A DNA stretch of 16,022 nucleotides from a virus (lineage: Duplodnaviria > Heunggongvirae > Uroviricota > Caudoviricetes): IMG/VR virus record IMGVR_UViG_2526164666_000036, positions 1 to 16,022 of that record. One strand, 5' to 3'. The position numbers were made by a program, and so were the translations under genes. Under the pieces are notes generated by a model. The model was not told the origin of the DNA, made no database searches, and saw only the letters and a list, made by a program, of their open reading frames with translations. Position 1 is the first letter of the stretch. The number at the start of each line of letters is the position of its first letter. Shown here one piece after another: positions 3,814 through 12,589 of this stretch.

Positions 3814-3844
3814 CAGGAAAAAACAAAACCCGCCGAAGCGGGTT
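3814..3844 (-). terminator. Rho-independent terminator downstream of hokD
   Basis: On the minus strand: AACCCGC-UUCG-GCGGGUU hairpin (UUCG tetraloop) followed by UUGUUUUUU. Confidence 0.6.
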
Positions 3845-3912
3845 AAGTGCGGGTGCGTTGAGGATGCCTGATTCATCAGAGGTGGCGAGGGATTTCTCCC
3901 TCGCCGGGTCTC

Positions 3913-4068
3913 TTACTCCTCAGGTTCGTAAGCTGTGAAGACAGCGACCTCCGTCTGGCCGGTTCGGATTCGTACCTCGCAGAGGTCTTTCCTCGTTACC
4001 AGTGCCGTCACTATGACGGTTAAACAGATGACGATCAGGGCGATTAACATCGCCTTTTGCTGCTTCAT
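3913..4068 (-). CDS. hokD: Hok-family type I toxin HokD (RelF), 51 aa
   Basis: Translation MKQQKAMLIALIVICLTVIVTALVTRKDLCEVRIRTGQTEVAVFTAYEPEE matches HokD as I recall it; AGGAG 9 nt upstream of ATG at 4068. The track ORF carries a 19-codon in-frame upstream extension. Confidence 0.9.
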   Translation of the reverse strand: MKQQKAMLIALIVICLTVIVTALVTRKDLCEVRIRTGQTEVAVFTAYEPEE

Positions 4069-4244
4069 AGCCTGCTTCTCCTTGCCTTTCGGCACGTAAG
4101 AGGCTAACCTACATGTGCAAGTCATAGATATGGCCTCAGATTAATGTTAAGCGTCTTGCCGGACGCGTAATGTTAACTGGGGCTTTTCTCTATCTGCCTT
4201 TTGGTGTTCATGCCTGAGACAGATAGCCTCAAGCACCCGCAGCA

Positions 4245-4273
4245 ATTCTACTTAACTTCCCTTTTCTCGCAAA
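4245..4273 (-). promoter_or_regulatory. Candidate sigma70 promoter for the hokD transcript
   Basis: On the minus strand: TTTGCG (4273-4268), 17-nt spacer, TAGAAT (4250-4245); would give a ~170-nt leader before hokD. Confidence 0.3.
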
Positions 4274-4359
4274 TCGTTTTTATCCCCAGCGGCAAATCGA
4301 ATACACCACCAGCGCCACCGCCATCGCAATTCCTACCGTTGTGAATGCTTCAGGCCAGG

Positions 4360-5289
4360 TCATCGATTCACCTCCTGCTCAATATTTTTAAGGTCATTTT
4401 CCGCATACAGTATTGCTGTCCTGGCTGCTCGTAACCGGGCTTTGGCATTTTTCTCTTCACGTTCAAGTTTTGCCACAGCTTCACGAAGAGCATCCCGCTT
4501 TGCATAGAGTGATTTAATCTCAGACACTATGTTTTCACCGTTTCTCGCACGGTCGAGAACAAGCTCGAACGGATCTAAAGCCAATCCGCATCGGTTACAG
4601 GTAATCGTACGATTCACTTCTGAAATTGTTGTACGGATATGCTGACAGCATTTTTGCTCGCCGCTTTTTCTGTCGGTTATCACAACGTTGAGGAGTCCTT
4701 CCTCCTCTGATTTTGGCTGTACCAGGGTGATAACATTGTCGACTTCATTTTTCATCAGTTCCCCCCCCTGCGGCGGTTCCGGTAGCGGCATCCAGTGAGT
4801 TGCCTGCTCAATACCATTACCCGGCTTAATCGTTGCATCTCCGCGCCGGAATGTGCTTCCTGTATAGCGTGCGGAGCATATTAGCGGTTCAACCAGAGAG
4901 CTATCGAAATTCACCGAAATAAGCACGTTCTGGTTCTTTTCAGGCATCCGCTCACTACAGCTTATCCAGCCATTCTTAATGCCACGATCCTGACTCTGAA
5001 GCATGGTGGCGCGGTGACACCAGATAATCCAGCCAAGCGCCATATCCCATGCCATGTATTCGCTATCGCCATTTTTTGCCCTGCGACGATCTACAGATTC
5101 CCCGAAACGCTTCTCCATAAATAATTCATAGGCTGCCCGTTCATCCGATACTGCTTCCAGTGACGCCAGTGCGATACGAAACACATTGGCAAGCAGGCTG
5201 TCTGAAGATTGGATATCGTGCGCCGGGTCGCTCAGGAAACCAGTGATGAATGATTTAATCTCCGCGTTTTCTCTGGTAATAGTGGTCAT
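4360..5289 (-). CDS. Phage protein with DUF551-like motif, C-terminal zinc ribbon and coiled coil, 309 aa
   Basis: ATG at 5289 preceded by AAGGAAAG; ATHWMPLPEPP motif resembles DUF551; CCQH...CNRCG then a heptad-like charged C-terminus (AKLEREEKNAKARLRAA). The track start at 5379 is a longer upstream extension. Confidence 0.7.
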   Translation of the reverse strand: MTTITRENAEIKSFITGFLSDPAHDIQSSDSLLANVFRIALASLEAVSDERAAYELFMEKRFGESVDRRRAKNGDSEYMAWDMALGWIIWCHRATMLQSQDRGIKNGWISCSERMPEKNQNVLISVNFDSSLVEPLICSARYTGSTFRRGDATIKPGNGIEQATHWMPLPEPPQGGELMKNEVDNVITLVQPKSEEEGLLNVVITDRKSGEQKCCQHIRTTISEVNRTITCNRCGLALDPFELVLDRARNGENIVSEIKSLYAKRDALREAVAKLEREEKNAKARLRAARTAILYAENDLKNIEQEVNR

Positions 5290-12531: not shown

Positions 12532-12589
12532 TTCTGGTGACATTTGGCGGTATCAGTTTTACTCCGTGACTGCTCTGCCGCCCTTTTTT
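12532..12589 (+). ncRNA. dicF: DicF small regulatory RNA
   Basis: TTCTGGTGACATTTGGCGGTATCAGTTTTACTCCGTGACTGCTCTGCCGCCCTTTTTT matches DicF as I recall it, apart from one or two changes near the 5' end; ends in its own GC-hairpin plus U-tract terminator; lies just upstream of dicB. Confidence 0.85.

Follow-up and report, generated by a model that had tools for sequence, protein, structure and literature searches.

The window, by which we mean the whole stretch of 16,022 nucleotides that was analysed, very probably contains an intact hok/mok/sok type I toxin-antitoxin module, a close relative of hokW/mokW/sokW that is situated in the early-right (nin) region of a lambdoid prophage. Every element of the module has its homologues in sequence and in structure, and the RNA pairings are both conserved and covarying. 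Taken together, these features are far beyond chance (Rfam E = 4.7e-26; z = -7.4 for the fold of the full-length transcript). The initial annotation had spoken of a possibly "more complete hok locus", and this description is borne out by a match of 115 bits to Rfam RF01794 and by a tac/fbi pairing that is present and covaries. The novelty that it implied, on the other hand, does not hold. The locus is of an ordinary kind that was already known: it is annotated in phage 933W, experiments that characterise its copy in Sakai prophage 5 (Sp5) were published in 2021 (PMC8621323), and among E. coli it is very common. The discovery value is small; of practical use are the reading of K-12 hokD as a remnant, the omissions in RefSeq and the in-frame extension as the equivalent of mok.

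Genomic setting and prevalence

On the minus strand the window runs from a PR-like promoter through cro-like and YdaT-like genes, replication genes and small nin-type genes to a DUF551-family gene, a 27-codon ORF, the hok/mok/sok module and a 92-aa ORF, which are followed by a DUF968 gene, RusA, the Q antiterminator and STnc100 with a strong terminator. DicF lies on the strand opposite to hok, and the host prophage is a Qin-like lambdoid element. The neighbours upstream of hok are the DUF551-family gene and the 27-codon ORF (4363-4280, minus strand; conserved and unannotated), and relBE is absent there. All upstream phage genes are co-oriented with hok. A scan of the minus strand found no good terminator between these genes and hok, and the terminator of hok itself is the only good intrinsic one on this strand from the PR-like promoter to Q.

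A prophage of E. coli O103 RM8385 carries the 581-nt region with 100% identity, and the whole window aligns to this prophage with 99.96% identity over 10.4 kb. Copies that cover at least 80% of the region are present in 2,121 of the 5,426 complete E. coli genomes (~39%), with a maximum of 12 places in a single genome. Searching a phage collection yields matches to Stx phages (91% identity), and related copies of the region are found on plasmids too. In the RM8385 genome the locus is annotated as "hokD" only; likewise, the RefSeq annotation of such prophages gives hokD alone and leaves out mok, Sok and the regulatory RNA elements. The elements that we assign to the module are provided in Table 1.

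Table 1. Elements assigned to the hok/mok/sok module, in positions of the window (promoters, transcripts and RNA structures are predicted).
Element	Position	Strand	Details
hok/mok mRNA promoter	4245-4272	-	-35 TTGCGA (4272-4267), 16-nt spacer, -10 TAGAAT (4250-4245); consensus scan
hok mRNA leader	4063-4238	-	Rfam RF01794 "sok", 115 bits against a gathering score of 59, E = 4.7e-26
Full-length hok mRNA, 421 nt (putative)	3818-4238	-	from +1 G at 4238 to the end of the terminator U run
tac element	4227-4238	-	GGGUGCUUGAGG; mRNA 5' end; pairs with 3863-3851 in the full-length minimum free energy (MFE) structure
ucb / anti-Shine-Dalgarno box	4177-4183	-	GCCCCAG; pairs with the mok Shine-Dalgarno region in the full-length MFE structure
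mok Shine-Dalgarno	4134-4137	-	GAGG, 8 nt upstream of the mok ATG; read from the sequence
mok frame, 70 codons	3913-4125	-	ATG at 4125, in frame with hok, common stop codon; ORF list
hok (hokD) toxin frame, 51 aa	3913-4068	-	Shine-Dalgarno GGAG at 4081-4078
9-bp hairpin with GAAA loop	3884-3905	-	GGCGAGGGA-GAAA-UCCCUCGCC, 7 nt past the hok stop codon
fbi element	3851-3863	-	CCUCAACGCACCC; complementary to tac; 12 bp with one bulge in the MFE structure
Intrinsic terminator of hok mRNA	3818-3844	-	stem 3844-3827, U run to 3818; terminator scan
Sok promoter	4082-4110	+	-35 TTGCCT (4082-4087), 17-nt spacer, -10 TAACCT (4105-4110); read from the plus strand
Sok antisense RNA, ~71 nt	~4117-4187	+	putative ends; coordinates by alignment from the sokW annotation (AF125520)

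Promoter, leader and full-length hok mRNA

In a whole-window Rfam scan the stretch upstream of hok matches model positions 1-157 of 157 of RF01794, which, though named "sok", models the hok mRNA leader on the hok-sense strand. The promoter in front of it agrees with 9 of 12 consensus positions; the scan gives one site against 0.8 expected and is by itself not significant. The last base of its -10 hexamer, however, is located 7 nt before 4238, where the Rfam match starts, and ~30 related loci, whose sequence is unrelated farther upstream, show a TAnnnT hexamer at this offset. The candidate promoter of the initial annotation was TTTGCG-17-TAGAAT; the scan scores it as TTGCGA-16-TAGAAT. Elsewhere, in further prophages and in chromosomes, homology sets in at about -12 to -35 with respect to 4238, and the sequence upstream of it is unrelated; the module thus travels with its own promoter.

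The sequence upstream of hok had been described as ~290 nt of non-coding DNA. This turns out to be inaccurate, as the transcribed leader comprises 170 nt (4238-4069) and holds the mok start at 4125, while the 27-codon ORF occupies 4363-4280. For the complete mRNA we took the putative 5' end from the start of the Rfam match and the putative 3' end from the terminator. The MFE of the resulting 421-nt transcript is -174.4 kcal/mol (z = -7.36 against shuffles). In the predicted structure the mok Shine-Dalgarno is sequestered, with GCCCCAG (4183-4177) paired to the Shine-Dalgarno-containing CUGAGGC (4183-4181 with 4133-4135 and 4179-4177 with 4137-4139). The Rfam consensus structure represents the open form, in which the ucb box is paired with tac, and this helix is matched here with zero mismatches. 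After truncation of the 3' end the MFE structure stays closed and the model puts the tac/ucb form ~10 kcal/mol higher; it does so for the experimentally validated R1-type RNA as well.

Two comparisons that had been suggested together with the initial annotation give a similar picture: tac, fbi and the Sok promoter are identical to those of 933W and have their counterparts in the R1-type locus, and the full transcript folds with tac and fbi paired and with the mok Shine-Dalgarno sequestered (z = -7.4).

Pairing between the two ends of the mRNA

In the full-length fold nucleotides 1-12 are paired with nucleotides 376-388, which correspond to tac and fbi. When the leader is folded by itself, or the RNA is folded after truncation, tac forms a local hairpin (4236-4226 with 4220-4210), the counterpart of a metastable structure known from R1 (PMC9841398). 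As a positive control, an R1-type plasmid hok locus was folded in the same way and the known tac/fbi pairing was recovered (the first such locus carried an IS150 insertion in the hok leader, and another plasmid was used instead).

The pairing was further analysed in a comparative manner. One scan of species-representative genomes yielded 53 hok loci from Escherichia, Shigella, Kluyvera, Citrobacter, Pseudocitrobacter, Photorhabdus, Pantoea and Erwinia. For all but a few loci, the best duplex of the first 12-16 nt of the leader with the 3' UTR is located 40-56 nt past the stop codon. The tac sequence is conserved across all loci compared. Among the distinct loci (37, from Escherichia, Kluyvera, Citrobacter, Photorhabdus, Pantoea and Erwinia) the tac/fbi duplex has an energy of -18.3 kcal/mol or lower in every case, compared with -12.2 +/- 2.6 after shuffling of the 3' UTRs. 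Compensatory changes are observed at pair position 4 (U-A in 24 loci, C-G in 10) and at pair position 12 (G-C in 22 loci, A-U in 14); the other pairs show either no change or one-sided changes. R1 was omitted from this covariation table because RNAduplex chose a distal site, 180 nt past the stop, instead of the known fbi (which the full-length fold does find).

The hairpin behind the toxin gene is present as the initial annotation had claimed, although it has 9 bp instead of 7 and starts 7 nt rather than 9 nt past the stop (3905-3884). It appears in the folds of both the full-length and the truncated RNA, and we infer that, as a stem-loop, it protects the 3' end of the hok mRNA once this has been processed (truncated). 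The terminator had also been recognised correctly (3844-3827, U run to 3818); it is conserved in K-12 and not in 933W.

The hok and mok reading frames

The Hok peptide matches Pfam PF01848 (HOK_GEF) over profile positions 1-42 of 42 with 82.9 bits (cut-off 22), and its matches to the NCBIfam Hok-family models are under the strict cut-offs (48.5 bits against 73). In agreement with the earlier statement that the HokD peptide is conserved, it has the same RefSeq accession as K-12 HokD (WP_000813254.1).

As to mok, the initial annotation had seen no overlapping frame of this kind (of 60 codons or more), the only upstream extension being in frame with hok. The latter is correct, but the absence of mok is not: this 70-codon extension is itself the mok homologue. 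The 933W record has mokW in the frame of hokW, and the same relation of mokC to hokC is annotated in K-12. We could place the leader start and the hok frame in 43 loci: the mok ATG is found at -57 and in frame in 31 of them (the window locus included), at -58 and out of frame in 8 (including the R1-type plasmid locus), and in neither arrangement in the remaining 4. Both forms occur in the K-12 annotation, mokC sharing the frame of hokC and mokB being in a different frame from hokB. An out-of-frame mok was rejected for the window, as the sole frame that crosses from upstream into hok is the in-frame one. The GAGG at 4134-4137 corresponds to the R1 mok Shine-Dalgarno GAGG (PMC9841398). With mok in frame, translation from its ATG would give an N-terminally extended, Hok-containing peptide of 70 aa. 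More generally, an in-frame upstream extension can represent the mok equivalent.

The antisense Sok gene

The possibility of an antisense Sok-like RNA, raised by the initial annotation, is supported by a plus-strand Sok promoter and a hairpin at the positions of sokW in 933W. A consensus promoter scan did not call this promoter, which stayed below the threshold because its -10 (TAACCT) matches just 3 of 6 consensus positions. It was instead placed by homology and by a published mutation of the sokW promoter. The sequence aligns with TTGxCx-17-TAnnnT of ~30 loci (TTGCGC/TATCCT in the R1-type locus), and the promoter-less sokW construct replaces the same -10 stretch, as deduced from primers YO-421/422 (PMC8621323); the stretch is identical in 933W.

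The layout of the predicted RNA consists of a single-stranded 5' tail over the mok start codon, then a long hairpin and then GGGGCUUUU. Its fold has an energy of -29.7 kcal/mol (z = -4.7), and the consensus structure of 22 sequences shows compensatory changes in 5 of 13 pairs.

Proposed mechanism and biological role

The mechanism proposed here is based on homology with R1 hok/sok (of which the mechanism is summarised in PMC9841398) and with hokW-sokW; it is from these systems that we infer the transcript ends, 3' processing, refolding, toxicity and Sok activity at the window locus. The promoter at 4272-4245 would make a stable mRNA of ~421 nt, in which tac (4238-4227) pairs with fbi (3863-3851). 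In the closed form thus obtained the box at 4183-4177 would hold the mok ribosome-binding site (GAGG, 4137-4134), allowing neither translation nor binding of Sok. Slow trimming from the 3' end would take off the terminator and fbi and halt at the hairpin at 3905-3884, after which the 5' end would refold and both the mok start site and the Sok target would be exposed. While it is being made, the short-lived Sok (plus strand, ~4117-4187) would pair over the mok start region, by which translation is blocked and decay is triggered. With Sok gone, ribosomes would start at mok (ATG 4125) and Hok would be produced, which is expected to act as a 51-aa inner-membrane peptide that damages the membrane.

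The role of the module is less certain. Precedents exist for prophage maintenance by post-segregational killing, for assistance of lysis and for exclusion of other phages (the latter was reported for R1 hok/sok; PMC8621323). The closest homologue would favour assistance of lysis at induction, as shown for hokW-sokW.

Given that the module is co-oriented with the early-right operon and no good terminator precedes it, induction should send strong read-through across it. One could speculate that this read-through would hit the Sok promoter head-on and make sense RNAs that contain the Sok target, thereby removing Sok; we put this forward tentatively and regard it as rather doubtful. If true, it could explain the RecA-dependent loss of sokW RNA after induction (PMC8621323), and the locus would be a lysis helper that is timed by induction and wired into phage transcription, instead of a device for maintenance or defence. 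The hok terminator, being the first strong one before Q, might then double as a nin-region terminator that delays expression of Q.

An intact structure is no proof of activity, considering that intact chromosomal hokA, hokB and hokC were found to give no post-segregational killing and no activation by rifampicin (Pedersen and Gerdes, as cited in a passage of bioRxiv 10.1101/2025.08.07.668861); the passages on K-12 in PMC7232551 and PMC12214031 similarly regard its hok loci as inactivated. The window locus could thus be structurally intact but functionally silent, conceivably owing to weak promoters or to excessive stability of the closed mRNA fold, and both the Sok -10 (TAACCT) and the hok -35 indeed match the consensus poorly. 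Nonetheless, we consider a silent locus unlikely: all elements are intact and conserved across genera and the RNA pairings show compensatory changes, indicating continuing selection. Moreover, hokW-sokW, which is 91% identical and has the very same Sok promoter, functions as a toxin-antitoxin pair and has an effect on phage release (PMC8621323).

It is far less probable that hokD is expressed solely as the distal gene of a longer upstream (early-right) transcript, with the "leader" being a spacer of no regulatory function. The co-orientation of hok with the upstream phage genes and the lack of a good minus-strand terminator between them would fit such an arrangement, as would K-12, where hokD is directly downstream of relBE. 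The leader, however, is a full-length and high-scoring hok leader match that starts 7 nt after a conserved -10, and the module travels with its own promoter. Read-through may come on top of the module's own control but does not take its place. Finally, the idea that promoter, hairpins and complementarity are chance features beside a conserved small ORF can be dismissed: promoter-like and terminator-like signals are not more numerous in the region than in shuffled sequence, but the Rfam match (E = 4.7e-26), the folds (z = -7.4 for the full-length mRNA and -4.7 for Sok) and the comparative data, in which dozens of loci share these elements and their positions, with covariation, refute it.

Comparison with known systems

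We compared the locus, read as an intact hok/mok/sok module, with four known systems. The first is hokD of K-12. The initial annotation rightly noted that the context differs: the order in K-12-type genomes is relB-relE-hokD, relBE there stands in place of the upstream parts that the module has in the window, and homology starts only at 4082-4085 of the window (14-17 nt upstream of the hok ATG), with the breakpoint falling inside the Sok -35 hexamer. Downstream of this point the Hok protein is identical, and conservation is 95-98% in the Shine-Dalgarno of hok, its coding sequence, the 3' hairpin, fbi and the terminator; the downstream genes in the K-12 Qin prophage (DUF968/ydfU and an antiterminator gene) are also the same as in the window. 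Missing from K-12, in contrast, are the promoter of hok, tac and ucb, the start of mok, and the Sok RNA with the greater part of its promoter. The alignment clearly shows K-12 hokD (relF) to be a 5'-truncated remnant of such a hok/mok/sok module. The loss of this 5' part is the "genomic rearrangement" cited in passages of PMC7232551 and PMC12214031, according to which hokD of K-12 is devoid of canonical components; one of them (PMC7232551) also notes intact loci of the hokD type in other strains. K-12 keeps fbi with no pairing partner.

Plasmid R1 hok/mok/sok (parB), the paradigm of type I systems, shows the same order of promoter, tac, ucb, mok Shine-Dalgarno, mok, hok, hairpin and fbi. Its Sok promoter is at the homologous position, and tac/fbi is predicted by the same fold in the R1-type locus and in the window. 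Differences concern the mok ATG (at -58 and out of frame with hok in R1, at -57 and in frame in the window), the sequence of the Sok stem-loop and the toxin, the reported identity of HokW to R1 Hok being ~44% (PMC8621323). R1 hok/sok is furthermore plasmid-borne and acts in post-segregational killing.

The chromosomal hokC/mokC/sokC of E. coli (gef) resembles the window in that mok is in frame and starts 57 nt upstream of hok, and in that the annotated 5' end of sokC overlaps the mok start by 9 nt, as does Sok of the window. The first 60 nt of the two leaders are 87% identical; overall the hokC leader is shorter (~150 nt) owing to a shorter Sok hairpin. In addition, hokC occupies a fixed chromosomal site, which in K-12 is flanked by IS186.

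The closest likeness is to hokW/mokW/sokW of the Stx2 phage 933W and Sakai prophage 5 (AF125520; PMC8621323), with the same upstream gene and the same architecture. Nucleotide identity to 933W amounts to 91% over 540 nt and to 92% within the leader of 170 nt. The two loci are identical in tac and fbi, in the -10 of the hok promoter, in the Sok promoter (TTGCCT-17-TAACCT) and in the Sok hairpin, and in the 933W record (AF125520) mokW, hokW and an antisense RNA, SokW, are annotated at the corresponding positions. Similar to mok in the window, mokW of 933W has 70 codons and is in frame. The two differ in the first mok codons, in the C-terminus of the toxin (FTAYEPEE in Hok of the window, as in K-12 HokD, against FVDYESEK in HokW) and in the 5' tail of Sok that forms the recognition region (GCAAGUCAUAGAUAUGG in the window, GUUCAGCAUGGAUUGAG in sokW). 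Beyond fbi the sequences diverge: the window has a K-12-type terminator, whereas 933W is without it.

For Sakai prophage 5 it was found that HokW is toxic and localises to the inner membrane, and that sokW, transcribed from its own promoter, counteracts it partly via RNase III and Hfq (PMC8621323). Northern blots detected both hokW and sokW RNA in lysogens; sokW disappears after addition of mitomycin C, and the production of HokW that follows this treatment needs RecA (PMC8621323). Without the hokW-sokW locus, the release of phage is halved (PMC8621323).

The 'sok' family of Rfam and the hok leader

The Rfam family RF01794, named 'sok antitoxin', matches the hok-sense strand with its 3' limit at the hok AUG. 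Given this strand and end point, the family models the hok leader rather than the antisense RNA, and direct annotation with RF01794 would place 'sok' on the strand opposite to the true one and overstate its length by about 100 nt.

Features of the hok locus and its surroundings (window positions)
Feature	Position	Strand	Remark
STnc100 sRNA family	812-1000	minus	Rfam RF02076, 133.7 bits (gathering score 47)
Terminator after STnc100	787-769		strong
Q antiterminator gene	2053-1379	minus
hok 3' UTR	3823-3904	minus	hairpin, fbi element, terminator
hok terminator	3827-3844	minus	predicted intrinsic terminator
hok Tyr47 codon and next G	3927-3930	minus	UACG
RF01794 match	4063-4238	minus	hok-sense
27-codon hydrophobic ORF	4280-4363	minus	unannotated; product MTWPEAFTTVGIAMAVALVVYSICRWG
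Run of 8 G	4761-4768	minus	junction of DUF551 gene and next ORF
Joined DUF551 frame	5379-4360	minus	339 codons
PR-like promoter	10448-10421	minus
DicF antisense sRNA	12532-12583	plus	Rfam RF00039, 77 bits (gathering score 48)

A small reading frame upstream of hok

Directly upstream of the hok promoter we find a small ORF. Its start codon and the stop codon of the preceding gene share bases (ATGA), and its 3' end lies 7 nt short of the hok -35. In the Stx2 phage 933W it is retained as an ORF with 81% amino acid identity, and two of the other hok loci compared (L008 and L013) have an identical copy. A Pfam search with its product gave no match. The ORF may encode a small membrane protein that is translationally coupled to the upstream gene.

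The hok 3' UTR and other RNAs of the prophage

The hok 3' UTR gives a sub-threshold match to the Rfam family isrK, an sRNA of the Salmonella Gifsy-1 prophage (27.7 bits, gathering score 50; E = 6e-4 for the 751 nt searched). This likeness may reflect only a two-hairpin architecture common to both. On the early-right strand, the hok terminator is the sole good predicted intrinsic terminator from the PR-like promoter to the Q gene, and it could, on these predictions, also act as a nin-region terminator. The STnc100 match is located downstream of Q, with a strong terminator after it; this is probably the Q-dependent late leader region. The DicF match marks the prophage as Qin/dic-like.

Comparison with other hok loci and a related prophage

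E. coli-type hokD (96-100% amino acid identity) was also found on short contigs (275 to 2,995 bp) of assemblies labelled Acinetobacter idrijaensis, Xanthomonas pisi and a Candidatus Scatousia MAG (loci L021, L026 and L059); L026 and L059 also have the hok leader (91-95% identical). Contamination of the assemblies is the likeliest cause of these occurrences. On an IncF plasmid (NZ_CP141206.1), a hok locus of the R1 type carries IS150 within its leader, approximately 110 nt before the hok ATG, which adds a further case of a hok locus disrupted by an insertion sequence.

The Tyr47 codon of hok, together with the next G, forms the motif for A-to-I editing by TadA. In K-12, 6% of hokD mRNA is reported to be edited in this way, which turns this Tyr into Cys, the residue that other Hok proteins conserve (PMC12214031).

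In the window a run of 8 G joins the DUF551 gene with the next ORF into one frame, whereas the prophage of E. coli O103 RM8385 (99.96% identical elsewhere) has 9 G at this tract and two separate, overlapping coding sequences. The discrepancy stems either from sequencing or assembly or from a tract prone to slippage.
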